From NCBI GenBank assembly GCA_965205155.1, contig OZ242033.1, forward strand, positions 2,036,590 through 2,100,589: a stretch of DNA of 64,000 nucleotides. Reading direction: 5' to 3'. Shown here piece after piece: positions 9,011 through 42,174 of the stretch. The stretch comes from Candidatus Aldehydirespirator sp. Lineage in GTDB: Bacteria > Actinomycetota > Acidimicrobiia > Acidimicrobiales > Aldehydirespiratoraceae. The position numbers and the translations under genes were made by a program. Below the pieces are notes generated by a model. It made no database searches, was not told the origin of the DNA, and saw nothing but the letters and a program-made list of their open reading frames with translations. Position 1 is the stretch's first letter. Each line of letters starts with the position of its first letter.

Positions 9011-9141
9011 CCGGCCCGGCCGGCGCAACCAAGTGTCCTACGGGGAACCCCCGCAGTCACTGGCCCTTGAGTATCCGGTCCGGCCGCCGGCCGCCGGTCC
9101 AGAGGAGCGGGGGCGCTGAGCACCGGAAGCGAGGAGCAAGG

Positions 9142-10365
9142 TTGAGCGCGGGTTCCCACATCGAGCCTCCGACTCCCGCGGGCGGGCGAGCCGGCCCCGG
9201 GGGGCGCTTCCCGGCCGGGCTGCCCGTCACCGGCGCCTGGCAGCCCGGCGACCCCGCGGGCGACCGCCGGTTCCTGGCCATCGCCGACGGGCGGCCCTTC
9301 GCCCTGGAGTGGGGCGGCCACCTGACCGAGGTGCGGCTGGCCTACGAGACCTGGGGCGAGCTCGACGCGCGAGCCTCCAATGCCGTGCTCGTGTGCCACG
9401 CACTGACCGGCGACTCGCATGCCGCCGGCGAGAGCGGTCCCGCTCATCCCACCGGGGGCTGGTGGGCCGAGTTGATCGGTCCCGGCAAGGCGATCGACAC
9501 CGACCGCTACTTCGTGGTGTGCAGCAACGTGCTGGGCGGCTGCCAGGGCACGACCGGTCCCGCCGACTTCGACCCCGCGGCCGGGCGGCGCTACGGGCCG
9601 CGCTTCCCGGTCGTGACGATCCGAGACATGGTGCGGGCCCAGGCTCTGCTGGCCGATCACCTTGGCATCGCGGGATGGCTCGGCGTGGTCGGCGGGTCGA
9701 TGGGCGGCATGCAGGTGCTGGAGTGGGCGGCCATGTACCCCAGGAGGGTGCAGTCGATCCTGCCGCTGGCCACCTGCGCCGCGGCCAGCGCCCTGCAGGT
9801 CGCTTGGAGCACGGTGGAGCGCCTGGCCATCGCCACCGACCCCGGCTGGTGCGACGGCGACTACTACGACAAGCCCGAGGGGCCCTGGATGGGCCTGGCG
9901 GTGGCCCGCCAGATCGCCCAGGTGACCTACCGGTCCGGTGAGTCCTTCGAGCGCCGTTTCGGGCGGCAGATGTTCGATCCCGTCGAGGCCTTCGATCTGT
10001 GGGGACGCTTCCAGATGGAGTCGTACCTGGACCACCACGGCCAGAAGCTGGTGAAGCGCTTCGACGCCAACACCTATGTGGTGCTCAACCGGTCGATGGA
10101 CCTGCACGACATCGGGCGGGGCAGGGGCGGCACCGCCGCCGCGCTCGGCCGCATCCGCGTGCCGGTTCTGACCGCGTCGGTTCGCAGCGACCGCCTGTAC
10201 CCGCCCCACGAGCAGCGGGAGCTGCGCGACGGGATCCTCGCGGGCGGCGGGGACTGCCGCCTCGTGACGCTCGACAGCGACGAGGGCCACGACGGGTTCC
10301 TGCTCGAGCACGAGCTGCTGCACGATCCGGTCAGCCGCTTCCTGGAGGAGGTTCACGGTGACTGA
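9142..10365 (+). CDS. metX: homoserine O-acetyltransferase
   Basis: AVLVCHALTGDSH, YFVVCSNVLGGCQGTTGP and GGSMGGMQ nucleophile elbow. In-frame TTG 9142 preceded by GAGGAG. Confidence 0.85.
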   Translation: MSAGSHIEPPTPAGGRAGPGGRFPAGLPVTGAWQPGDPAGDRRFLAIADGRPFALEWGGHLTEVRLAYETWGELDARASNAVLVCHALTGDSHAAGESGPAHPTGGWWAELIGPGKAIDTDRYFVVCSNVLGGCQGTTGPADFDPAAGRRYGPRFPVVTIRDMVRAQALLADHLGIAGWLGVVGGSMGGMQVLEWAAMYPRRVQSILPLATCAAASALQVAWSTVERLAIATDPGWCDGDYYDKPEGPWMGLAVARQIAQVTYRSGESFERRFGRQMFDPVEAFDLWGRFQMESYLDHHGQKLVKRFDANTYVVLNRSMDLHDIGRGRGGTAAALGRIRVPVLTASVRSDRLYPPHEQRELRDGILAGGGDCRLVTLDSDEGHDGFLLEHELLHDPVSRFLEEVHGD

Positions 10366-11554
10366 CGCCGAACTGCACGCCCACACCCGGGCGATCCGGG
10401 CCGGCCGCGCCGACAACCAGAACGCGCTGGCCCCGATCCTGTGGGCCACGTCAACGTTCACCGCGGCCAGCGTCGCCGAGGCCCGCGACCTCGCGGTCGA
10501 CACCCACTCGACCCGGTTCTACACCCGCTACGGCAACCCGACGGTCAAGGCGTTCGAGGACGTCGTGGCCGACCTCGAGGGCACCGAGTCGGCCCGGGCG
10601 TTCGCCTCGGGCATGGGCGCGTTGAGCGCCATCGTGCTGGGGCTGTGCTCCAGCGGCGACCACATAGTGGCCCAGCGCCAGCTCTACGGCGGCACGCAGC
10701 TGCTGTTGCAGACGGCCTGTCCCCGCTTCGGCATCGGCGTGACCTTCGTCGACGGCACCGAGCCCGGCGCGTTCGCCGATGCCGTCATCCCCGGTCGCAC
10801 GATGCTGGTGATCGCGGAGTCGCCCGCCAACCCGAAGCTCGATGTGGTCGATCTGGCCGAGGTGGGCGCCATCGCCGGGCCGATGACGGTGGTGGACTCG
10901 ACGTTCGCCACGCCGCTGGGGCAGAGGCCGGCCGAGTTCGGGGTCGACCTGGTGGTGCATTCGGCCACCAAGGCCATCGCCGGCCACAACGATGCCACCA
11001 TCGGGGTGGTGGCCGGCAGCGAGGAGTTGCTGGCGTGGCTGTGGAACTACGCCGTGCTGCACGGTGCGGCGGCCTCGCCGTTCGACGCCCTGAACGCCCT
11101 GAGGGGAATCCGCACGCTGGCGGTGCGCCTGCGTCAGCAGACCGGCACCGCCACCGCGCTGGCCGAAGCGCTCGGGAGTCATCCGGCGGTCGAGGCCGTG
11201 TACTACCCGGGCTTGGCCTCCCATCCCCAGCATGAGCTGGCGGCCAGGCAGATGGACCTGGCCGGGGGCCTGGTCACCTTCGACCTGAAGGGCGGGTACG
11301 AGGCCGGCAAGGCATTCATGGAGGAGGTCCGGGTGGTGCAGTTCGCCACCTCGCTGGGCGGTCCGGAGAGCCTGGTCACCCATCCGGCGTCCACCACCCA
11401 TGTGAGCCTGCTGCCCGAGGAGCTCGAGGCGCTGTGCGTCGGTCAGGGCACCGTCCGGTTCTCGGCGGGCCTGGAGCACACCGGCGATGTGGTCGCCGAC
11501 GTGGTCGGGGCTCTGGACCGGATCGACGGCAGCGCGGCTTCCTCGGCCCGGTAG
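10358..11554 (+). CDS. Cys/Met-metabolism PLP-dependent enzyme (O-acetylhomoserine sulfhydrylase / cystathionine gamma-synthase family)
   Basis: HSATKAIAGH PLP-lysine motif, 398 aa, overlaps the metX stop by 8 nt. Confidence 0.8.
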   Translation: MTDAELHAHTRAIRAGRADNQNALAPILWATSTFTAASVAEARDLAVDTHSTRFYTRYGNPTVKAFEDVVADLEGTESARAFASGMGALSAIVLGLCSSGDHIVAQRQLYGGTQLLLQTACPRFGIGVTFVDGTEPGAFADAVIPGRTMLVIAESPANPKLDVVDLAEVGAIAGPMTVVDSTFATPLGQRPAEFGVDLVVHSATKAIAGHNDATIGVVAGSEELLAWLWNYAVLHGAAASPFDALNALRGIRTLAVRLRQQTGTATALAEALGSHPAVEAVYYPGLASHPQHELAARQMDLAGGLVTFDLKGGYEAGKAFMEEVRVVQFATSLGGPESLVTHPASTTHVSLLPEELEALCVGQGTVRFSAGLEHTGDVVADVVGALDRIDGSAASSAR

Positions 11555-11562
11555 CGTCGAAG

Positions 11563-12279
11563 ATGGTGCGCTTGTTCAGAGGTTGGATGACGGCACCGCT
11601 GCTTGCGGTGGCGCTGTGCCTGCTGGCGGCCGGGCCGGCCTCGGCTGCCGACGGCGGCGACGAGCTGGTTGTCAGTGTCGACCAGTCCGACTCCCTGGGC
11701 CTGGTCAAGACGGCCCAGTCCGATGGCGGCACCGATGCGGACTCCGGTCCGGACCGGCGCCTGGTCGGGCGGGAGAGCGGCGAGCGGGTGGATGCGGTGG
11801 TGATCGCCCTCTGGACCATCGCCGGGGTGATGACCGTGCTGCTCGGGGTCTTCCTGTGGCACACCAGCCCTCGCCGGCGCCTGCGGTTGGCGGGCCCGTC
11901 GGCTGAGCTGTTCGACGGCGCCGAGGGGAGTGTCGGACCGTCCGAGGATGCGTCGACCGGGGATGTGGCGGCCGAGGATGTGGCGGCCGAGGATGTGGCG
12001 AGCGGGGATGTGGCGGCCGAGGATGCGGCGAGCGGGGATGTGGCGGCCGAGGACGAGTCGCGAGAGGACTCGCTCGAGGGTGGCGTTGGCGGGAGGGTGC
12101 GAGAGGCGCTCCTCTGGCTCCGCTCGCGGGTGGCTCCGCAACAGGTTTCGGTGCCTGCCGTCGATGAGGTTTCGGTGTCTGCCGTCGATGACTCCCAGCA
12201 GGAGTCCGGCAGGGATTCCGAGGACGAGTCGGCTGTGTGGAAGTTCGGCGAGGAGGACGGCGGGGAGCGTTCGGTCTAG
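11563..12279 (+). CDS. hypothetical signal-peptide/TM protein with an acidic repeat tail
   Basis: MVRLFRGWMTAPLLAVALCLLAAGPASA signal, later TM VVIALWTIAGVMTVLLGVFLW, GDVAAED-type repeats encoded by 15/30-bp DNA repeats. Confidence 0.55.
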   Translation: MVRLFRGWMTAPLLAVALCLLAAGPASAADGGDELVVSVDQSDSLGLVKTAQSDGGTDADSGPDRRLVGRESGERVDAVVIALWTIAGVMTVLLGVFLWHTSPRRRLRLAGPSAELFDGAEGSVGPSEDASTGDVAAEDVAAEDVASGDVAAEDAASGDVAAEDESREDSLEGGVGGRVREALLWLRSRVAPQQVSVPAVDEVSVSAVDDSQQESGRDSEDESAVWKFGEEDGGERSV

Positions 12280-12289
12280 ATTGGCGGCC

Positions 12290-12517
12290 ATGGCCGACGG
12301 TTTCGATGCTGACGCGATGATCGAGCGCTTCCGAGAGCGCGCCGCGGGGGTCAAGCGCCGGAACCTTCCGCCGGTGGCGGGCGAGGAGCGGAGGCACTTC
12401 CTGGAGCAGGCCCAGCTGGACTTCCAGGACTTCGCCATGATCGGCGACGCCACCGCCACGTTCACCGAAGGCGTCCTGCAGCTGACCATCGATCTGCGGC
12501 CGCCGGAGGCCGGCTGA
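12290..12517 (+). CDS. small hypothetical protein (75 aa)
   Basis: ATG 12290, high GC3, MADGFDADAMIERFRERAAG... Confidence 0.45.
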   Translation: MADGFDADAMIERFRERAAGVKRRNLPPVAGEERRHFLEQAQLDFQDFAMIGDATATFTEGVLQLTIDLRPPEAG

Positions 12518-12559
12518 AGGCGTGGGCCTCGGGGTGTTGGCGGTAGGATCGGCCATCCC

Positions 12560-12632
12560 GCGGACGTAGCTCAGTTGGTAGAGCGCAACCTTGCCAAGGT
12601 TGAGGTCGCCGGTTCGAAGCCGGTCGTCCGCT
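12560..12632 (+). tRNA. tRNA-Gly (anticodon GCC)
   Basis: Acceptor GCGGACG/CGTCCGC, D arm TAGCTCAGTTGGTAGAGC, anticodon loop TTGCCAA, T arm GCCGGTTCGAAGCCGGT. No encoded CCA. Confidence 0.9.
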
Positions 12633-12635
12633 CGG

Positions 12636-18608: not shown

Positions 18609-19253
18609 CCCTGTAGCCGATCAGCGGTCAAGGGCGGCTCTGGTCTGTCGAGGGGTGGTTCGTAGACTTCGACTATGCGGACGCCGTTGTCGGATGGCGA
18701 TCATGAGTTCTTGAGCGGGTTCCGGTTCCAGTCCGAGCGGGTCTGGGATGACGACTCGGCGGTGTCTGATGCGGCGGTGGGGCGGGTGATGCTGTTGGGT
18801 GACATCCACAACAGCCGCAAGGTGTTGGACGCAGCGCTGCGAACCACTCGCGATGAGGATTGCGACGTGTTGGTGCAGGTCGATGACTTCTGGCTCCAGG
18901 ACTCCAACTGGCGTGGCTTCTCTCCCGAGCACGCCGGCGTCATGTACTCGGCGGTGCATGCGCCCATTCCGGTGGTGGTCGTGGATGGCAACCACGAAGT
19001 CTGGCCGTGCTTGTCGGCGTTTCTGGCACGCGACGACACCGCCACGGCTCGCGAGATGGGCCGGCCGCTGCACTTGGCCGGCTCGCTGTGGTGGGCCGAC
19101 CGCGGCAGCACCTAGACCTGGGCAGGCCGACGCTTCGGGGCGCTGGGCGGCTCCGCGTCGCCTGACCGGTGGATGCCCCGCGCCACGCCGTACTGAGGTG
19201 GGTCCCTGATTTGAGTCCGCGTGTTGTGGGTCTGAGTCCCCAAGGATGGGAGG

Positions 19254-33029: not shown

Positions 33030-33107
33030 GGGCCGTTAGCTCAGCCTGGTTAGAGCGCCTGCTCGACACGCAGGAGGTCAGAGGTTCAAATCCCCTACGG
33101 CCCACCA
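33030..33107 (+). tRNA. tRNA-Val (anticodon GAC) with unusual anticodon loop UCGACAC, CCA encoded
   Basis: Acceptor GGGCCGT/ACGGCCC, D arm GCTCAGCCTGGTTAGAGC, anticodon stem CCTGC/GCAGG, T arm AGAGG-TTCAAAT-CCCCT. Confidence 0.85.
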
Positions 33108-33108
33108 C

Positions 33109-33175
33109 GGGGGGTTCGCGACATGGAGCAGTTCGCGTTCGCGAGTTTGTTGAGAGATAAGCCCTCTTGGTGCCT
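33109..33175 (+). repeat. tRNA-Val downstream flank, repeated at 50211-50275
   Basis: ggggggttcgcgacatggagcagttcgcgttcgcgagtttgttgagagat versus ggggcgttcgcgagatggagcggtccgcgttcgcgagtttgttgggagat. Confidence 0.8.
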
Positions 33176-33532
33176 TCTGTTCGGTTGAAGGCTTGATCGA
33201 CCAGCGGTCGGGCGATCCGAATCCGTCCGGAATGCACGCGAGCGCGTCGTGACGTGTTCTTGGGCGCGCTGAAGCTGACAGCGCTCAGGCCGTCAGCTTC
33301 AGGGACAGCACCGCTACCGCGTGCGTGATGCTCGCGCCGTGCGGTGCACGGCGCGTCATGACTCTGGACCTGGGAACGGCACGACGCAGCAAGTCGTTGT
33401 CCTCATAATGCCGCAGGAGAGGGACGAGGACTACCCGGGGGTTACGCTGCTGTAGCCACGCAACCCCTAACGCCACGCCTACATCGGGCGGAACACCGTC
33501 GTATGGGCCCGGGACAAATCCGACTCAATGGG

Positions 33533-33883
33533 TCAAGTCAAGAGCCATCTCTGAGTATCCAATTGTTCGATGGGGCCGCGGACGCTGACGTTCTCGTTGC
33601 CGGGGCAGTCGTGCCACCAGATCACCAGCTCATCGCCCATCACATCACGGAACCTCGCGATGTCGGAACGATCCAATACGTCGCCTTCCGGGTAAGCGGC
33701 GCTGCCCACGTCCTCCAGGCTGATCTGCACAGCGTCGTGGGCTGAGCATCCGCACGGGAACACCGAGGGCCCACCGAACCGGAGGAACTCCTCCACAGCG
33801 CCGGGGCCTGTCTCTGCCATCTGGATGTCCGCCGGGCCGACTCCGCGGCGACGGTGGCTCGGACGCTTGCGTTTGCGGCTCAT
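33533..33883 (-). CDS. hypothetical protein (basic N-terminus)
   Basis: 116-aa ORF in a lower-GC stretch. No recognisable motif. Confidence 0.35.
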   Translation of the reverse strand: MSRKRKRPSHRRRGVGPADIQMAETGPGAVEEFLRFGGPSVFPCGCSAHDAVQISLEDVGSAAYPEGDVLDRSDIARFRDVMGDELVIWWHDCPGNENVSVRGPIEQLDTQRWLLT

Positions 33884-34056
33884 GACAGCACCTCCGTTGA
33901 CGACAGCGGATCGATGGGGGACGCGGGAGCCTCAAGCGAGGCAAGTCCCGTGGACGTAACTTACGGCCGAGGTGTGACATTTCGGAGCGCTGACTGTTTC
34001 AGGGCACCTGCGCAGGCCAGAGCCGACGAGCGTTAGCTAAGGCACCAGACACCCTT

Positions 34057-34225
34057 CGCACCACTCTGACCTCGTTAACTGAGCGTTGTCGATGGGCGTT
34101 GTAAATCAGCGTTCTGACGCCAGCGGACGGCCAAGAAAGTCAAGAAACCACCCTTCCGGATGTGAAGGTCTTTCCGCCAGTTACTAGAACGCCGAAGTCA
34201 AAGATGGTTGCCCCCGGGTCGAGGA
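34057..34225 (+). repeat. degenerate junction element V1
   Basis: cgcaccactctgacctcg...ggatgtgaaggtc...ctagaacgccgaagtcaaagatggttgccccc is collinear with the elements at 50.1 and 51.6 kb. Confidence 0.55.
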
Positions 34226-34656
34226 CCGCGCTTCATCAGATTTCTTCGCTAAAGGGTTGCTACGCAGAGTGAGCAGAATCTGCACGGTCCAACTGTTCAT
34301 TGGAACTATCAAAGAACGGGCGTCGTGGGCCGTAGCCATGCGCGTCTAGTGGCGAACACAGATCTAGACGCTCTGCGCAAGTCGTGTCTCTCACAATGAA
34401 GATCGAACAACGGAGAACAGCCGCTGAATGGGTTCTCTCAAACAAGTCTTGGTCTTCAGGCATTACGGATATCTGACTTTGTCGCCGTGGCTCAGAACTC
34501 ACTTTGAGCCCCTGCAAAAAAGTACGTGCGATCGCGAGAGTTGACCCGTACCGTCCCGCCTATACGACCTCAACCCACACCACCAAGGGGCTCACAACTG
34601 TCGGACTACGGTCGCAGGTGCCATCTATTGTTCCTTTCTCTGGGAAAGGAGCAGGC

Positions 34657-35694
34657 ATGACTCTTCGAACCATCACCAATAGGACGATGATCGCGGCCCT
34701 AGCAGCGGCCACGATGGTCGCCTCCGCGTGCGCCAGCGAAGCCGACCCCTTGGAGGCCGTCTCGACGACGGCGGCGGCCCCCGCGATCACCTCGGCACCC
34801 ACCATGACCGCCGTCGCCGAGCCGACCGCCTGCGACGATCCGTCCGCAGAGTATCTCGGCGACGGGCGCTACGAGCGCGACGGACTCGTCTACAAGTTGA
34901 TCGAGGGGCACTGCCTGATCCGACCGAACCGACCCGACGACGCTGATGATGTCCTCGACGACGCTCCCGTGCTGCATGGCGCAGACGCCGCCGGTGGTCA
35001 GGCGACCGTGATGGCGGAGCAGGTCTGCGTCGAGGGCGTGTGTGTCGACGTGCCACAGGACGGTTCGCCTATCGAGTTGCCTGAGGGTTTCGCCAACCAC
35101 GAGCACCCGACTGAGACAGAACCCGACCCTGAGGCTGCGGTCGCCTCCGCCACGACCGTGCCCGCGGTGGAGGCGACCACCACAGCCGCGCCCGAGCCGG
35201 ACCCCGGGCCGACCACCACAGCCGCGCCCGATTCGGAGCCTGAGGCAACCACCAGCACAACCACCTCGACAACGACCAGCACAACGACCACAACGACTTC
35301 GACGACGACCAGCACGACGACTGTGCCACCGCCGTCCACGACGGCTCCGCTGCCCGAGCAGGTCGGCGAGGTCATCACCGTGGACTTTGAGGTAGACCGC
35401 GAGTGCCACGACACGGGATGCACGCGGCCGTTGCTGTTACAGGTCGGGTCGGTGCTGCGCCTGAGCGATTATCCCGAGGATCACATTGTGATCGTCGAGA
35501 TGGAAGAGCCGGCATTCGACGGGGTAGTGGTGCTCTGGGTCTGCTGGGAATACGCCTCGGATGGGTTCTACGGGCGGTTTCGGTGGAGCGCCTGGGACAT
35601 GTCTTGGCGGCCGGACAAGTCGGGCGCCTATGAGCCGGTGCCGGGCACCTACCGCCTCGGGGACAACCTGTCCGACTATCACGGGCCGTGTTGA
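34657..35694 (+). CDS. lipoprotein with a Thr-rich linker (module A, N-terminal-type domain)
   Basis: GGAAAGGAG SD, lipobox MVASAC. ACDDPSAEYLGDGRYERDGLVYKL domain shared with 37608-39740. TTSTTTSTTTSTTTTTTSTTTSTTT linker. Confidence 0.7.
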   Translation: MTLRTITNRTMIAALAAATMVASACASEADPLEAVSTTAAAPAITSAPTMTAVAEPTACDDPSAEYLGDGRYERDGLVYKLIEGHCLIRPNRPDDADDVLDDAPVLHGADAAGGQATVMAEQVCVEGVCVDVPQDGSPIELPEGFANHEHPTETEPDPEAAVASATTVPAVEATTTAAPEPDPGPTTTAAPDSEPEATTSTTTSTTTSTTTTTTSTTTSTTTVPPPSTTAPLPEQVGEVITVDFEVDRECHDTGCTRPLLLQVGSVLRLSDYPEDHIVIVEMEEPAFDGVVVLWVCWEYASDGFYGRFRWSAWDMSWRPDKSGAYEPVPGTYRLGDNLSDYHGPC

Positions 35695-36938
35695 CGCGTC
35701 GCCGCCGCTGGCTGCTGCGCGCCCTGGCGGCGGTGACGCTTCTCCCGGTGATGTCGCCTGCGACGACATCTGCTGACCACGGCACCCCCGACACCGGTCG
35801 CCTCAAGCAGGTCTACACCCGCTACTACCATCACAATCCTTGGATCTGTGAGTCGTCCTTCGATGATCAGACCTACACGCTGCCCGACTGCGACTGGCCA
35901 AGAACTCTGTCAGAAACCGGATACAAGAGCACACCTCCCGAGCGAGTGGGCGGCGCGCCGCATCAGGGCACTGTCGTCACGCGATGCGAGATCGACGCCA
36001 CAGACCCGGCGAGTTCAGCGAACTGCGGTCACAGCCCGCGGGACACCGGGAATCCGTTGACGTCGTGGCGGTTCGGCGGGCAGTACCATCCCATCCACCA
36101 AGACGAAATAGGCGTCGCGGGCAGAACGGCGTATGTGTGCAGCGCGTCTGTCTCCAGCCTGTCCATCTACACCTCGTCGATGGGGCCGCTGTATCGGGCG
36201 GACGGGCATCCGGTGCAGGCCGGCGCCGGGGAATACTGCGGCACCGCTGCGCATCAGTTGTGCATCAGCGAGGTGACTGTCACCGAGGGCGCCCGCGCCA
36301 TATTGACGATCACCGCGTCGGGCGGCACCGGCACCGGGACGGTGCGGTTCGCGACCTCTGACGGCACCGCCGCGGCGGGCAGCGACTACACGGCCGTCGT
36401 GCCGTCCGTTCACACATTCGATGCGTCGACGACCTCGCAGCCGGTGATCGTGGCCACGATCGACGACACCGATGTGGAGTCCGCTGAGACGTTCACTGTG
36501 ACCCTCTCCAACGCCGACTCGGGGGCGTCCATCTCGTGCGCCACGGCGACGGTCACGATCCTCGACAACGAACCCCCGCCCACTACGACCACGACCGTGC
36601 CCAGCACCCCCACTACGACCACGACCGTGCCCAGCACCCCCACTACGACCACGACCGTGCCCAGCACGACCACTACCACGCCGCCGATGGCGGGCTGTGA
36701 TGCACCCCACACCCGGCTGAGTTCGTTGTACGGGCTGGAACGGGCCGGCTACATCGCCGAGACCAAGGCCATGTACTGCGAGGGCAGCCGCGCCCATCTG
36801 CACAACTATCCGCAGTTCCACGGCCCCTGGGTGGCGTCTTGGCTGCCTCCCGACGGGACGGTCTGCTTCGAGGCGGCGCTGCTGCACGCGGCGCGCACCG
36901 GCACCTACGACGAGGCCACGCGGGTCAAGTTCTGTTGA
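35688..36938 (+). CDS. secreted Calx-beta-domain protein with PTTTTTVPST repeats and a conserved Cys-containing C-terminal domain (module A)
   Basis: RRRRW signal. Calx-beta pattern TVRFATSDGTAAAGSDYTAV...VATIDDTDVESAETFTVTLS. Last 70 aa shared with 37608-39740. Start overlaps the upstream stop. Confidence 0.75.
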   Translation: MLTRRRRWLLRALAAVTLLPVMSPATTSADHGTPDTGRLKQVYTRYYHHNPWICESSFDDQTYTLPDCDWPRTLSETGYKSTPPERVGGAPHQGTVVTRCEIDATDPASSANCGHSPRDTGNPLTSWRFGGQYHPIHQDEIGVAGRTAYVCSASVSSLSIYTSSMGPLYRADGHPVQAGAGEYCGTAAHQLCISEVTVTEGARAILTITASGGTGTGTVRFATSDGTAAAGSDYTAVVPSVHTFDASTTSQPVIVATIDDTDVESAETFTVTLSNADSGASISCATATVTILDNEPPPTTTTTVPSTPTTTTTVPSTPTTTTTVPSTTTTTPPMAGCDAPHTRLSSLYGLERAGYIAETKAMYCEGSRAHLHNYPQFHGPWVASWLPPDGTVCFEAALLHAARTGTYDEATRVKFC

Positions 36939-36956
36939 GCCCATGAGGAGGGGACA

Positions 36957-37112
36957 ATGACCGACACACGCCACGACGCCCGACGCCGATGGGTGCTGGT
37001 AGCGGTGTCGGTCGCCGTGGTCCTCTACGGCATCGTCGGGTTCCCCAGCATCGAACGGCAGTGTGGGATTCCTTCTCTCCCGTCTGGTCAACGAACACCC
37101 GCGCCCACATAG
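36957..37112 (+). CDS. small membrane protein (51 aa), short paralog of 37302-37592
   Basis: GAGGAGGGG SD. MTDTRHDARRRWVLVAVSVAVVLYGIVGFP matches MTDTRRHARRRWALYAVVAAVVLYGIVGFP. Below the ORF-track size cutoff. Confidence 0.55.
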   Translation: MTDTRHDARRRWVLVAVSVAVVLYGIVGFPSIERQCGIPSLPSGQRTPAPT

Positions 37113-37181
37113 CGCTCGTCAGCACCGCCTTGGCCTCTCCCAATACGTCAAGCGGCCATCGTGAACGGGCCTACGCCACGC

Positions 37182-37292
37182 CTGTCGGAACGCAGTCCGT
37201 TGCGCTATACGAGAAATCCGCTACAGAACCTCATTTGCGACCCTGCAAGATCGTTGCAGTCTCAACGATCTTGGGACTAACGCACCAACCCC
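37182..37292 (+). repeat. about 111-bp repeat with an internal 11-bp-stem hairpin (copy A)
   Basis: ctgtcggaac...caagatcgttg cagtct caacgatcttg ggactaacgcaccaacccc. Direct repeat of 39774-39885. Confidence 0.8.
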
Positions 37293-37301
37293 GGGCGGCA
37301 G

Positions 37302-37592
37302 CTACTGAGCCGTCGTGGTGGGCGTCGGCCTGGCCGTCGTGGTGGGCGTCGGGGCGTGGGTGTGGGGCTTGTTGTAGCAGTACGGCGTGTCGAGCCTCTG
37401 CCCCCAGAAGGTGGTTATGCACTCGCGCTGCGTGTCGGCGGCGGCGGGCGCTATGTCGAAGTCCAGGGCCGCTCCGGGGTCGGTGACCAGATCGTCGGGC
37501 GTGGGGAAACCGACTATGCCGTAGAGGACCACCGCGGCCACCACCGCGTACAGCGCCCATCGGCGGCGGGCATGGCGGCGGGTGTCGGTCAT
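37302..37592 (-). CDS. small N-terminally anchored membrane protein (96 aa), partner of the module B secreted protein
   Basis: TM AVVAAVVLYGIVGF, starts 16 nt after the stop of 37608-39740, PTPTTTARPTPTTTAQ tail. Confidence 0.6.
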   Translation of the reverse strand: MTDTRRHARRRWALYAVVAAVVLYGIVGFPTPDDLVTDPGAALDFDIAPAAADTQRECITTFWGQRLDTPYCYNKPHTHAPTPTTTARPTPTTTAQ

Positions 37593-37607
37593 CGCATCCT
37601 CACGCTC

Positions 37608-39740
37608 TCAGCAGTACAGGACCTTCGTGGCTTGGTCGTAGACGGCGGTGCGGGCGGTCTCTAACAGCGCCGCTTGGAAGCAGACCGCCCCATCAGGCGG
37701 CAGCCACAAGGCAACCCACTCGCCGTGGAACTGCGGGTACCTCTTGAGGTTCTCGGAGGTGCCGGCGCAGTGCATGGCCTTCATTTGGGCGATGTAGTCG
37801 GCCCGCGGCAGGCCGTAGCCCTCAGCGGCGGTGTCGGTGTCGCCGGGCCGGGCCGCTGCCGCGGCATCTATGACCGCCTCGCAGCGCAGCCGGAAGCCCG
37901 CCGTGCGCAACTCTGCGGGCAACAGTCGGCTGGCATGGGTCTCGCAGTTCGCCCATGAGTGCTCTCCCGCGTAGTACAAGCCGCGCTCGCTGTCACGGAA
38001 GAGTTCCGCCCGGTCCCTGGCCTTGCGCTCAGCGACCAGTCCCACATACTGCTCGGCGGCGCACTCCGCTGTGACGCCCAGATAGCGCACCGGGTTCCCG
38101 AAGTCGTTGATGAGGAGGGTGCAGAAGTGGACGGTCATCCACTCGCCGCCGCCCGGCGACGTCCAACCCGGCGGGGGCCCCGACAGCGCGTCGCGGTAGC
38201 AGCCGTAGAGCGCCGCCACCAGCGGCGGTTCGTTGGGCGGCAGGATGTAGTTGTCTTCCACAAGCGACGTGTCGTGACCCTCGGCGCGCAGCGCCTTCTC
38301 GTTTCCGCCCTCCAGCAGCCGGGGCCAGCAGCCCACCAGCAGCGCCGGACCGTTGGCGTCGGGGTAGCTCTCCCATATGGCGTCGGCGGTGGCGTACTCG
38401 CAGGGGTACTGGCCCTCCAACATGCGTTCGGCCTCGGCCGCGGTGATCTGATCCCACCACGCCTTGATCCGCTCACAGGAGTCGCTGCCGCCCTGCACCA
38501 CCGGCTCGTAGTGCCCGGCTGCTGTCGTGCCGACTAGAGCCGACACCCGCGTGGCGCCGTACCAGTCGACCTCGCTGGCGCACTGCTCCAGCGGCTCACC
38601 GACCAGCCACGCCGCAGGCTCCGGCTCAGGAGGCTCGGTCGTGGCCGTGTCGGGCTGCTCGTGCCAGCAGTCCAGCACTTCATCTATGTACTGGCAGATG
38701 TAATCCTCGGGGTAGGGGAAGCCGTCCTGGTCCCCCTCGGGCCACAGCTCAGCCGCCGCAACAGGCTCAAGACGCGCCCTGTCCCACGGACCGGGCCCCT
38801 CCACCGAAACCGGCGCAGTGGTGGTCGTGACGGGCTCGGGCTCAGGCTCGGGTTCCGGCTCAGGTTGTGGTTCAGGCTCGGGCTCGGGCTCCGGCTCGGG
38901 CGTGGCCTCAGGCTCGGGGTCTGGTTCCGGTTCCGGTTCGGGTTCGGGCGGTGCCGTGGTAGTGGTCGTGGTGGTCGGCCCGGGCTCGGTCGGTGCCGGT
39001 GTGGGCTCGACAGTGACCACAGCGGCGGCGGACTGGACGCGCTCGTGGTCGCTGGCGACCCACACGAAGTCTCCCGCAGCGACGGCGTCGCGTGTCACGA
39101 CGAAGAAGCCGCCGCTGTTGACCTCCGCGGCCTCGAGTGAGTCGAGATCGCAGTCGGAGACATCAACCAAGGCTGTGGCGGCGTTCAACTCGTCTTCTGT
39201 GGCGTCCTCGGGCAGGCCTTCCGCCAGATCGCACAGCATCGTGAAGATCGCAAGGCTCGGATCGAACCCCGACCCGAAGAGAGTGAAAGTGGTGAGACCC
39301 TCCGACACCGTGACCGGGTCAACGACCAGGTGCGGAGCAGCAACTGCGTCTGACGGCGCCGTGCTCGGGACCAGATCAGACTCGACCGCTGCATCAACGA
39401 CGGCATCCGCTTGGCCGGTCCCTTCAGCGACGGCTGGGTCGGGCAGTCCGCGGGGCCGAGGCAGGCACCTAGTGTCGGTCATCTCATAGACCAGCCCGTC
39501 GCGTCGGAAGAACCCGCCGCCGAGGTCCTCGGCTGCGGGGTCGTCGCAGGCGCTGAGCTCTTCGGCGGGAGCGGTGGTCGAGGACGGCTGATCGTGCCCG
39601 ATGGATGTGGTGGCTGCTTCCGTGACAGAGGGCGCGGCGGGCTGGGGAACGGTCGGTTCCTCCGAGGCGCAGGCTGCGGCCACTGCGGCCGCGGCGACGA
39701 GGGCTATGCCGATCTTTCGGATACTGGCTGAGCGAAGCAT
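37608..39740 (-). CDS. large lipoprotein (module B) combining the N-terminal domain of 34657-35694 and the C-terminal domain of 35688-36938
   Basis: GAGGAG SD, lipobox [30 protein letters not shown], (PE)n linker, C-terminal [19 protein letters not shown]...[21 protein letters not shown]...KVLYC. Confidence 0.75.
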
Positions 39741-39773
39741 GGCAACTCCTCTGCAACTGGGTGGCGCAAACGC

Positions 39774-39885
39774 TCTGTCGGAACCCAAATCCGTTTCGCC
39801 ATACGGGAAATCCGTTTCAGGCCTCCATCAGCGACCCTTCAAGATCGTTGAGATTTCAACGATCTCGGGACTCACGCACCAGCCC
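39774..39885 (+). repeat. about 112-bp repeat with an internal hairpin (copy B)
   Basis: ctgtcggaac...agatcgttga gatt tcaacgatct...cgcaccagcccc, between the divergent starts at 39740 and 40079. Confidence 0.8.
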
Positions 39886-40078
39886 CCGCATCCGATCATC
39901 CCAACCAGCCTCGGCCCAATTCGCTGACGTCCCCTCTCAGGTCCCGGCAGCCAGCGTAATGACCTTCTCGGCTCGCATGCCGCTGACGACTCGACAGGCC
40001 GTGCGCGTCCCGACAGGGGCAAAACCCGTTTCGCACTCGGTCTACGGTTCTGCGACGCCCAACCGCCGAGGTGAGACA

Positions 40079-40735
40079 ATGGGAACCAGTCTTGACAACA
40101 CGGATGCTTGTGATGGCCTCGGTGAGGCCGCCGCGGTGCGTCCCATCGACGATACCGCGAACCGGGCGAGCGAGACCCACTTCTGGTTCGAGGCCGCCAG
40201 CCCGCTGGGAACCGTGTTCGTCACCCATTGCCGCGGGTGGGTGTCAGGAGTTCGCCTAGCGGCCACCCCCGACTGCCTGGAGGTTGACCGCAGTGACGCC
40301 GAGTGGGGCTTCTGGGATGCTGACACGTTCGTTCAGCTCATGCCCGGTGAGATCAAGGTTCGCTCCGTCGAGCCCGATCGAGGCCACGACCCAGCTTTCC
40401 AGGAACGCATACGAGGAGCCCTCATCGAGGGACGCACCGACATACCAATAGACCTCATGTGGCTCAAGACGGCTCCGAAGCACCGCATGGCGTTGCAAGC
40501 CGTTACCAGAATCCCTCGCGGCGCAACGCTTACTTACGAAGCAATCGCCAACATCTGTGAGTCTAGGGGCGGCCGGTGGGTGGGCAGAGCCATGAAGCGC
40601 AACCCGGTGCCGCTGTTGATCCCCTGTCATCGCGTCATCCATCAACAGGGCGAAGACGACAGGTGGGGCTACGGCAGAGGCCTCAAGAAGAAACTGCTGG
40701 CACATGAGCGCGAAGAGCGCGTAGCAACATGCTGA
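40079..40735 (+). CDS. methylated-DNA-protein-cysteine methyltransferase (MGMT/Ogt) family protein with an unrecognised N-terminal domain
   Basis: C-terminal TYEAIA...GRAMKRNPVPLLIPCHRVI (PCHRV active-site motif). Confidence 0.7.
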   Translation: MGTSLDNTDACDGLGEAAAVRPIDDTANRASETHFWFEAASPLGTVFVTHCRGWVSGVRLAATPDCLEVDRSDAEWGFWDADTFVQLMPGEIKVRSVEPDRGHDPAFQERIRGALIEGRTDIPIDLMWLKTAPKHRMALQAVTRIPRGATLTYEAIANICESRGGRWVGRAMKRNPVPLLIPCHRVIHQQGEDDRWGYGRGLKKKLLAHEREERVATC

Positions 40736-41207
40736 GCGACCCACCCCGTGGAGTGCTGCCGTGAGCCGACGCAGCAGCTACCGCTCCCGGGGTGTCGCAA
40801 GGCACCATGCAGCTCTTCTGGGCGGCGGTGCTTCTCGTGGTGATCGCTGTCTTGGTCTACTCCGGTTTGTGGACAGGCTTTCTCGGCTTGGATAGGCGAC
40901 ATGATCGTCTGTTGATCGGGTCACGGAAATTGACAATACGCAGCCGGAGTGACTGTCAGCGGGACACCGATGGTGGCGACCAGCTAGTACACGAGTCAGT
41001 ACGGCGTGTCATCGCCTTGTGCTGGCGACGGCCCCGGACTCGAACAGCCGCAGCACGATGTGGCGACTGTCGTCGGATGATCTGCCGGTTACCCACAACT
41101 CATCGAAGGGTGGAGCGTCTGATGGAGCGGCTTGCTGGTGATGTTGCCGACCTCGTCGCGGACAGGCTGAAGGGCGAGGAGGACACCTGACCGCCCAGAA
41201 GCGGCAT

Positions 41208-41711
41208 CTAGCCCCAGATGTTGTCGGATGGGTCGTCGCTAGCCCGTGGGAGCTTCGCCCTCTTGCGGAGCGCGGACGACAGCGATACGGCGTCACGCTG
41301 CAACTTGGAGCACCGCTTGCGTCGAAACACGAACGCTTCCTCGTGTTCGGGAGGGGTGACATGATCTCCTAGGTAACCCAACTCCTGGTCGGCTCTGATC
41401 GTCGCGAGCGGCAGCGACAGGATTCGGTTGGCCAATTTCGGGTTGATGGATGTCCAATCCACCCCGGTAGGGAATTCGGGCCCGGTCGGCATCGGCACGC
41501 TGAAGTGCCGGGTGCCCGAAGCGTGCCGCTGTCCGTCGTCATCGATGGTTGCCTGGCAGTCAGCCGCGAACCGGTCCAAGACGGGACACACCAGCAGAGC
41601 CAGCGCACGGCGTCTCCGTCCCTTGGCGAGCCAGTGGGCCACCTCCTGAGCGAAGACAGTCAATACCGCACCGACGCCGACGCCGATGAGTCCGCTCATT
41701 AGTCCATTCAC
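41208..41711 (-). CDS. hypothetical N-terminally anchored membrane protein
   Basis: GGAG then GTG 41711 (or ATG 41699). TM MSGLIGVGVGAVLTVFAQEV. Confidence 0.45.
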   Translation of the reverse strand: MNGLMSGLIGVGVGAVLTVFAQEVAHWLAKGRRRRALALLVCPVLDRFAADCQATIDDDGQRHASGTRHFSVPMPTGPEFPTGVDWTSINPKLANRILSLPLATIRADQELGYLGDHVTPPEHEEAFVFRRKRCSKLQRDAVSLSSALRKRAKLPRASDDPSDNIWG

Positions 41712-41856
41712 AACGATTCGGGCTCCTTGCTGTGCGGGAGGGCGACGGCCAGCCACGCTACCGAGGAGCGCAACGCGGAAGGGCTCTACGCTGACGCGCA
41801 CCGCATGCGGCGAGACGACAGACCTCGGCTGCACAACCGGGCGCGGGTTAGGGGAG

Positions 41857-42174
41857 CTAGTGCGATGGTGCGACAGCAGCGCAACGGTGGCGGTCAGCCG
41901 GCAAGCACCTCAGCGCGGGCACGATCTTGTGCCGTGGGGCGTCACCTGTCTTGAGCAGGCGCAGCACGATGTGGCTTCTGTCTTGGAATGCTCTGCCGGT
42001 GATCCAGACCTCGTCGAAGTAGTCGAATGTGAGCCTGCCGAGCACTTGGTACGGACAGCGGTCCGATGCTTCTAGTTCCTGGCAGGCGGGACCGAAGTAG
42101 TCGTCTAGCTGCGCTGCGGCCGTGTTGTCGTCCAGCACCACGAACAGCCACTTCAGGCCGGGGGCGTTCTCCAT
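41857..42174 (-). CDS. hypothetical protein; a fragment copy of its 3' part lies at about 41009-41110
   Basis: FDEVWITGRAFQDRSHIVLRLLKTG versus FDELWVTGRSSDDSRHIVLRLFESG. Confidence 0.45.
   Translation of the reverse strand: MENAPGLKWLFVVLDDNTAAAQLDDYFGPACQELEASDRCPYQVLGRLTFDYFDEVWITGRAFQDRSHIVLRLLKTGDAPRHKIVPALRCLPADRHRCAAVAPSH

Follow-up and report, generated by a model that had tools for sequence, protein, structure and literature searches.

A putative mosaic of truncated surface-protein cassettes behind a tRNA-Val gene in an Acidimicrobiales bacterium

The 64,000-nucleotide stretch of a Candidatus Aldehydirespirator genome analysed here (the window) carries, at positions 34657–39740, two modules of genes for putative surface proteins, module A on the plus strand and module B on the minus strand. 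All five open reading frames (ORFs) that an initial annotation had placed in these modules were found again at the same coordinates. Module A consists of A1 (34657–35694, +), which appears intact and encodes a probable lipoprotein, A2 (35688–36938, +) and the 51-codon A3 (36957–37112, +). Module B consists of B1 (37608–39740, −), an intact gene for a probable lipoprotein of 710 amino acids, and B2 (37302–37592, −). The modules lie tail-to-tail, that is convergently, and not head-to-head as the annotation had put it when it described them as a duplication. Contigs from two Logan runs, which may represent the source sample of the genome assembly, carry 36638–40100 with zero differences and zero alternative joints; every junction is spanned, and the contigs are interrupted only at the exact 30-nucleotide tandem repeat of the A2 linker. 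The stretch is thus not misassembled and the arrangement is real.

BLASTP confirmed that three segments are shared between the modules, in each case far above chance. The N-terminus of B1 matches that of A1 (residues 2–97 versus 3–91; 45% identity, E = 2e-13), the last 69 residues of B1 match those of A2 (642–710 versus 348–416; 65% identity, E = 1e-28), and the first 31 residues of B2 match those of A3 (77% identity, E = 2e-10). At the DNA level there is one continuous inverted repeat of ~320 nucleotides (36729–37047 versus 37502–37817, 73–81% identity), which runs from the shared C-terminus through a spacer with a ribosome-binding site to codon 31 of the small ORF. The central parts of A1 and A2, however, are unrelated to that of B1, so the modules do not represent a single protein encoded by two genes in A and by one in B, as had been proposed; A2 is better described as a chimera, for reasons given below.

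An inverted repeat with this placement could be where a programmed inversion switch recombines, as in shufflons or the Mu G segment, to swap what follows each of the convergent genes, and its arms do flank a 454-nucleotide segment that holds a perfect 11-6-11 palindrome. We nevertheless consider such a switch most improbable. The two arms are only 73–81% identical, and the arm on the A side resembles a foreign homolog more closely than it does the arm on the B side. A scan of neighbouring ORFs turned up no recombinase family, and the contigs of the two runs show a single orientation without alternative joints, although contigs can hide rare variants. Furthermore, an inversion would merely swap the tails of what we read as two gene stubs. 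A simple inversion between the two arms was also considered as the history of the locus and was rejected, as it restores no intact gene.

The locus most closely related to module B, L032, bears directly on what the small ORFs are. It carries a B1 ortholog with 89% nucleotide identity and, 15 nucleotides after the stop codon of this gene, a gene for a 798-residue protein (P0073). P0073 starts with MTDTRRNARRRW..., continues with a transmembrane segment, a C..C motif and Pro/Thr (PT) repeats, and then has Cys-rich mini-repeats and three Calx-beta domains. B2, which is made up of an Arg-rich N-terminus, a transmembrane segment, a C..C motif and a PT linker, differs from the first 95 residues of P0073 at 5 positions (95% amino-acid and 96% nucleotide identity). 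Homology by blastn stops at 37309, within the PT repeat, the stop codon of B2 follows two codons on, and the cut end abuts the first copy of a repeat that we call D3. On this alignment, B2 is the first 95 codons of a cut-off gene for an anchored Calx-beta giant.

In general, a giant of this kind is what follows a B1-type gene. An anchored Calx-beta giant is found in this position in six loci, and in five of them it starts 13–21 nucleotides downstream: in L032, in L028 of G035 (1256 residues, with ..ALYGIVGFPTPDD.. in common with B2), in L002 (P0056, 1066 residues), in L034 (1274 residues) and in L035 (797 residues). In the sixth, L031 of G012, the giant has 1098 residues and follows after a 718-nucleotide gap. 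These partner proteins of ~800–1270 residues are N-terminally anchored and Cys-rich, and Calx-beta scores in the relatives range from 48 to 176 bits with Pfam. Two other loci have no downstream giant after the B1-type gene. The window has no intact pair of this type, with only 95 (B2) and 31 (A3) codons of the giant gene remaining. The initial annotation had taken the small ORFs to be membrane partners of the larger proteins and expected them to recur beside homologs. The start MTDTR..RRRW..LYGIVGFP does indeed follow the homologs, but the gene that carries it encodes a Calx-beta giant of 800–1270 residues and not a small partner. For A3 only codons 1–31 match partner genes, the breakpoint falling after the transmembrane segment, and no relative was found for codons 32–51. 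In yet another locus, L001, the MTDTR start is joined to a duplicate of the signal peptide of the upstream gene.

L001 also shows rearrangement of its own: positions 9028–12635 hold tandem B1-type genes with SLH repeats, the second of which begins with MTDTRHDARRRW joined to the duplicated signal peptide of the first. Frameshifts are present in both genes, and the contig has 3x coverage. Both L001 and L032 have a metallophosphatase gene ahead of the B1-type genes. A relative of this gene in the window (18712–19193, 75% identical to L032 6776–7257) lies in another island, behind a tRNA-Cys gene.

A different view of the small ORFs is that they are real small membrane proteins, in which the N-terminal 95 residues would contact the terminal domain of the B1-type protein and act as a working minimal partner. 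Among 5.8 billion clustered proteins there is one small relative of B2, P0077, a 109-residue protein encoded in locus L122. It ends ...TTTAQ* as B2 does and is followed by the same D3 element as in the window, and therefore represents the B2 truncation as carried by a second strain; the preceding gene encodes 701 residues and was judged B1-like from its position and size, not from sequence comparison. A marine-metagenome contig, X3, also carries the B2/D3 junction with the ORF open. The X3 allele has 7 amino-acid differences plus a compensating pair of indels, and its changes cluster in the ectodomain motif, and the L122 allele has a different number of PT repeats and 89% amino-acid identity over the aligned part. 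Thus the B2 ORF is intact in the window, X3 and L122 despite 4–11% divergence and a changed PT-repeat number. This speaks for a minimal partner, as do the conserved spacer and ribosome-binding site and the finding that the first 31 residues are the best conserved part among otherwise different downstream genes. In contrast, the only small homolog in the database is the same truncated allele, B2 ends in bare linker, A3 is without a relative past codon 31, six intact loci encode an 800–1270-residue protein at the position of B2, and the changes in X3 cluster in the ectodomain motif. We regard the minimal partner as improbable on balance.

Module A has a relative of its own in the congener G017. 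A1, which has an N-terminal C..C mini-module, an acidic/PT linker and a ~115-residue C-terminal domain ending in Cys, is matched over its full length by a G017 ortholog (40% identity, E = 4e-42). The end of this ortholog and the beginning of the following gene share a 7-nucleotide stop/start overlap, exactly as in A1 and A2, in agreement with the coupled stop and start noted for these two genes at the outset. The G017 gene that follows encodes 1613 residues, among which are five Calx-beta stretches and a cadherin-like domain that begins at residue 339. Residues 1–347 of A2 align with residues 1–342 of this giant (40% identity, E = 4e-62), and the alignment stops at GCDAPxTRLxxL, the opening residues of the G017 cadherin-like domain. 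This 5’ part of A2 (35688–36728, +) encodes a signal peptide, a Cys-rich region, one Calx-beta domain and a PT linker with three 30-nucleotide repeats. The description of A2 as a Calx-beta protein holds, with a match to PF03160 at residues 204–294 (36297–36569; E = 6.9e-14, 52.3 bits against a gathering cut-off of 27), and scans of the five proteins against Pfam and NCBIfam found Calx-beta in A2 only. Weak hits to CwsA, KdpC and TonB in these scans were set aside as low-complexity or transmembrane noise.

From residue 348 onwards, the sequence of A2 is that of the terminal subdomain found in B1-type proteins. On these two alignments A2 is an in-frame chimera with its fusion at nucleotides 36728/36729: the first 347 codons would come from a giant surface-protein gene, and the 3’ part (36729–36938, +) would be the grafted last 69 codons and stop codon of a third B1-type gene. 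The tail has 84% amino-acid identity to a metagenomic homolog, P0007, and 65% to B1. In a three-way DNA alignment with the B1/B2 junction and L001, the graft, the spacer with its GAGGAGG ribosome-binding site and codons 1–31 of A3 (36939–37049, + for the last two) align better with L001 than with the B1/B2 junction. Because it is closer to P0007 and L001 than to B1, the A2 tail derives from a third cassette and is not a paralog that arose from B1 in situ. No combination of Calx-beta with a B1-type tail except A2 was seen among the profile-search hits inspected. When an 82-residue segment with the A2 tail was modelled alone, it gave a helical unit of moderate confidence (pLDDT 79) for which Foldseek found no match in the PDB.

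We also examined the protein family to which the shared C-terminus belongs. B1 consists of an N-terminal C..C module, a middle region, a Pro/Glu (PE) and PT linker and a ~340-residue domain with 12 conserved Cys (37611–38621). The middle region, with the conserved motif VDPVxVSEGLxTF...GSGFDPSL, is common to several family members with a lipobox-type N-terminus, B1 included, and may be Ig-like as judged by eye. The unit of conservation is larger than the 70-residue domain originally described: homologs align over the last 330–340 residues of B1, and A2 carries only the last ~70 residues of this domain. B1 matches the full profile and is a full member of the family. A2 matches only profile positions 269–340, and would accordingly be classed as the carrier of a fragment, not as a full member. 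An exhaustive profile search of 1.84 billion cluster representatives returned 43 family members; the family is rare. In full-length members the domain ends on the final residue of the protein, which is an invariant Cys, and the 12 Cys are conserved or nearly so. The N-termini are lipobox-type signal peptides or SLH repeats, followed by PT or PE linkers. With [LVI][ASTVI][GAS]C at the end of the signal peptide as the criterion, family members have L-x-A-[AGS]-C at this site, and A1 (MVASAC|ASE) and B1 (AVAAAC|ASE), inspected by eye, have a relaxed form with a hydrophobic residue at −4. At the repeats of the PE linker (12-nucleotide units, 38821–38961) and of the A2 PT linker (30-nucleotide units, 36579–36679), many foreign contigs are attracted and the runs show loose ends and small length differences; the number of repeat copies probably varies between strains.

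The initial annotation had likened the locus to polymorphic effector–partner systems. In an effector–immunity type of system the small membrane protein would protect or partner a secreted effector, and a large secreted protein followed by a small ORF does occur twice within the island. However, the C-terminus is the conserved part of this family and the N-termini vary, which is the reverse of what is seen in polymorphic toxins. The 12 conserved Cys are as expected for a stable extracellular domain, none of the five proteins gave a toxin, immunity or secretion-system family hit in Pfam or NCBIfam, and the true neighbour of the B1-type gene is a giant Calx-beta surface protein. The analogy therefore does not hold, and we think an effector–immunity system very unlikely.

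The distribution of the family is narrow and its members are often broken. In the genus of the window it is present in 6 of 37 genomes, one of which holds 10 hits including fragments with stops, and it was absent from all 24 genomes examined from other families of the order. The genome of the window itself has two matches, B1 (complete) and A2 (last 70 residues). Searches for related loci with the family alignments, in genome contigs and in metagenome contigs, found no relatives of the domain. Fragments are common in the family: among the 10 hits in G012, two have internal stops and four run over long open frames (602–618 residues), the rest being fragments, and P0038, P0047 and P0050 are short pieces that lack a 5’ end. 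In L012 (G012:C1), a degenerate copy of the terminal subdomain, with a stop, sits directly downstream of an intact 612-residue B1-type gene.

Neither Pfam nor NCBIfam gave a match for the C-terminal domain, for the N-terminal module or for either small ORF, in line with the initial failure to assign them to a family. A fold and family search of the terminal domain, proposed at that time as a check, was carried out on the ~340-residue unit. The AlphaFold2 model of B1 374–710 (mdffbf519240b) is confident (pLDDT 89.5, pTM 0.89) and points to no known family; Foldseek gave no significant match in the PDB (best E = 0.66, TM score 0.12) or in BFVD, and a sequence-profile search of the PDB with the family alignment gave no match. 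The fold is apparently new. Among the non-significant matches, the lytic transglycosylases MltF, MltE and SltB1 and phage tape-measure or minor-tail proteins recur (E = 0.7–9, TM score 0.1–0.16). These fold matches are too weak to use, and a lysozyme-like subdomain in B1 374–710 is to be taken as a lead and not as evidence.

Sharing of segments extends to the N-termini and to the DNA upstream. The module ACDDPxAE..G....DG.VY....C is present in A1, in B1, in the B1 ortholog of L032 and in the A1 ortholog of G017, and the likeness between the A1 and B1 N-termini thereby appears to reflect an anchoring module common to both types of cassette. A leader or upstream block precedes A1 at 34391–34656 (+) and was delimited by tblastx and DNA alignment with L028 8036–8291. 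Over the ~270 nucleotides that precede A1 and its first 8 codons (MTLRTIT), identity to the region upstream of the SLH-type B1-family gene of G035 is roughly 80% as judged by eye; the comparison spans 34391–34680 versus L028 8036–8325, and the proteins themselves differ. The block is not shared with the region upstream of the A1 ortholog in G017, and Rfam found nothing in it. It may be a portable promoter or leader. Because such blocks are shared across different genes, the loci look like mosaics of exchangeable blocks.

Taken together, we favour the reading, to which we would give a probability of about 80%, that the region is a mosaic made of fragments of three two-gene surface cassettes that accumulated behind a tRNA-Val gene, and that its small ORFs are the stubs of cut-off giants. 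This reading builds on homologies, breakpoints, a conserved pairing of genes and real junctions, all of which are observed directly. In an intact B-type cassette, gene 1 would encode a protein that is held in the envelope by an N-terminus of lipobox or SLH type and that continues with linkers and the ~340-residue disulfide-rich C-terminal domain. Gene 2 would encode a giant, anchored at its N-terminus, that carries Cys-rich mini-repeats and Calx-beta domains. Cassette B would here have kept gene 1 (B1), with gene 2 cut to 95 codons in its Pro/Thr linker repeat at the edge of D3. Cassette A would be of a second type, formed by the A1 lipoprotein and the A2 giant, in which A1 has been kept and the giant cut to 347 codons. 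These 347 codons would then have been fused in frame to a ~320-nucleotide piece of a third cassette, of B type. From gene 1 of that cassette the piece would retain the final 69 codons, followed by the spacer and by the opening 31 codons of gene 2 (A3). The apparent breakpoints lie in the Pro/Thr linker repeat in B2, after the transmembrane segment in A3 and at the start of the cadherin-like domain in A2. The stubs and the chimera would thus be by-products of recombination and not a designed system.

Several observations weigh against this reading. The short B2 allele is open in three strains (the window, X3 and L122) with the same stop in all of them, and B2 has a ribosome-binding site, a 15-nucleotide spacing and a G+C fraction at third codon positions (GC3) of 0.91; it could have persisted as a small membrane protein with a function. 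The fusion in A2 preserves the reading frame and adds a fourth Cys (in GCDAP) to the three of the graft. The ratio of non-synonymous to synonymous substitution rates (dN/dS) of the graft is 0.41–0.55, as compared to 0.45–0.63 between intact genes, which is no difference and so gives no sign of decay; for the stubs, too, dN/dS fails to tell decaying copies from intact ones. Finally, compared with L032, the B1–B2 segment is inverted with respect to a flank that the two loci share.

The setting of the modules is that of a tRNA-linked island. A tRNA-Val(GAC) gene at 33030–33107 (+), detected by ARAGORN and by Rfam (62.5 bits), anchors the island; GC3 falls from ~0.92 to 0.75–0.88 between 33 and 61 kb, and an IS3 transposase lies at 48.2–49.4 kb. 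Insertion at the tRNA 3’ end, atypical composition and presence or absence between strains were all found, as expected for an island of this type, whereas direct repeats derived from the tRNA 3’ end were not, and no integrase was found within 33.1–40 kb. In L122 an identical 3’ half of the tRNA-Val gene lies 17 nucleotides from D3 and module B. Since the tRNA gene is there directly beside D3 and module B, the part of the window at 33108–37210, which includes module A, is additional sequence.

Module B is bracketed by the two copies of D3, a repeat of ~110 nucleotides. Copy 1 lies at 37183–37292 (+) and copy 2 at 39777–39886 (+), 37–146 nucleotides upstream of the B1 start; they are 80% identical and are the only two in the genome. 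Both contain a perfect 11-6-11 palindrome (CAAGATCGTTG N6 CAACGATCTTG; 37246–37273 and 39840–39867), with the form CAAGATCGTTG-CAGTCT-CAACGATCTTG in copy 1. The geometry of this palindrome matches that of a tyrosine-recombinase core site or an operator, either of which it might be. The left half of copy 2 is also found upstream of the B1-type gene in L001, in the same relative orientation, and D3-like elements with other flanks occur in marine and sponge metagenome contigs (X3, X5 and X6). Two other identities for D3 were tried. A decayed 3’ end of the tRNA-Val gene was rejected, as 788 and 480 of 2000 shuffles reach the score of the left part of D3. As for a riboswitch or leader, Rfam on 33–41 kb gave the tRNA alone. 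Beyond module B, the flank at 40974–42055 is common with L032 (94% identical), and it is relative to this flank that the B1–B2 segment is inverted. Between D3 copy 2 and this flank is a gene (40079–40735) that encodes an MGMT-type DNA-binding/alkyltransferase domain (Pfam E = 3.8e-20, residues 137–211), preceded by an N-terminal part of ~130 residues without a family match.

The finding itself is ordinary mosaicism and decay of surface-protein genes in an island. What looked like an effector–partner system is made of gene fragments, and recognizing this guards against the annotation of A2, A3 and B2 as a new system. The by-product of interest is an unannotated family of 340-residue domains that is consistently paired with Calx-beta giants in a probably sponge-associated lineage. 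We infer that the intact pair forms an envelope anchor or dock together with a giant adhesin-like protein at the cell surface, because of the anchoring signals, the disulfide-rich domains, the adhesin-type repeats and the conserved adjacency of the genes; it would presumably act at the host interface. The pairing is thus a testable candidate for how Calx-beta/cadherin giants are held or handled at the bacterial surface. A more ambitious proposal, which we consider rather unlikely, is that the intact cassette is an undescribed surface system restricted to a lineage of the Acidimicrobiales, in which a domain of new fold with six disulfides docks or processes the giant. In such a system the terminal 70 residues, the spacer and the first 30 codons would form both an interface and a crossover point, and the short B2 would be a minimal partner. 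The locus also illustrates how such loci evolve, with whole blocks (the leader, the N-terminal module, and the terminal subdomain with its junction) exchanged or fused.

Several known systems resemble parts of this picture. Contact-dependent inhibition (CDI), Rhs and LXG toxin–immunity loci likewise have a large secreted protein followed by a small ORF, and are mosaic with orphan fragments. In the window, however, conservation runs in the opposite direction, toxin and immunity domains are absent, and the small ORFs are giants that have been cut short. The integrase-less stacking of cassettes, or accretion of cis-mobilizable elements (CIMEs), at tRNA genes is similar in that the region lies directly 3’ of a tRNA gene, module B is bracketed by direct repeats of ~110 nucleotides, there is no integrase in 33.1–40 kb, and a related strain lacks module A at the site. 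D3 differs in not being a copy of the tRNA 3’ end. The giant adhesins LapA, Bap and SiiE are also very large surface proteins with beta-sandwich repeats, encoded beside the gene of a smaller envelope protein, and P0073 has a weak, sub-threshold LapA-domain hit (E = 5.9e-5). In contrast to these adhesins, the loci described here lack both a type I secretion signal and transporter genes, the N-terminus of the giants is a membrane anchor or a signal peptide, and the accessory protein belongs to an unannotated family whose functional link is inferred from adjacency only.

The nearest comparison is with sponge-symbiotic members of the genus UBA11606 (Aldehydirespiratoraceae), which are reported to be enriched in genes with Calx-beta, cadherin, fn3 and leucine-rich repeat (LRR) domains (PMC11706023). 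The relevant passages of that study report domain counts per genome, and an upstream protein with the 340-residue domain or a two-gene cassette does not appear in them; such counts could not reveal the decay and mosaicism of cassettes in a tRNA island. These symbionts belong to the same or a closely related lineage as the window, and the giants of the cassettes similarly bear Calx-beta and cadherin-like domains. A housekeeping protein encoded in the window has 89% identity to its counterpart in a metagenome-assembled genome of the Acidimicrobiaceae and 77% to the one in Candidatus Aldehydirespirator sp. OZ244822.1. The relatives of the window cassettes come from sponge and marine metagenomes; partial copies of the window sequence itself also occur in such metagenomes, and the host bacterium, a member of the Acidimicrobiales, is probably sponge- or marine-associated.

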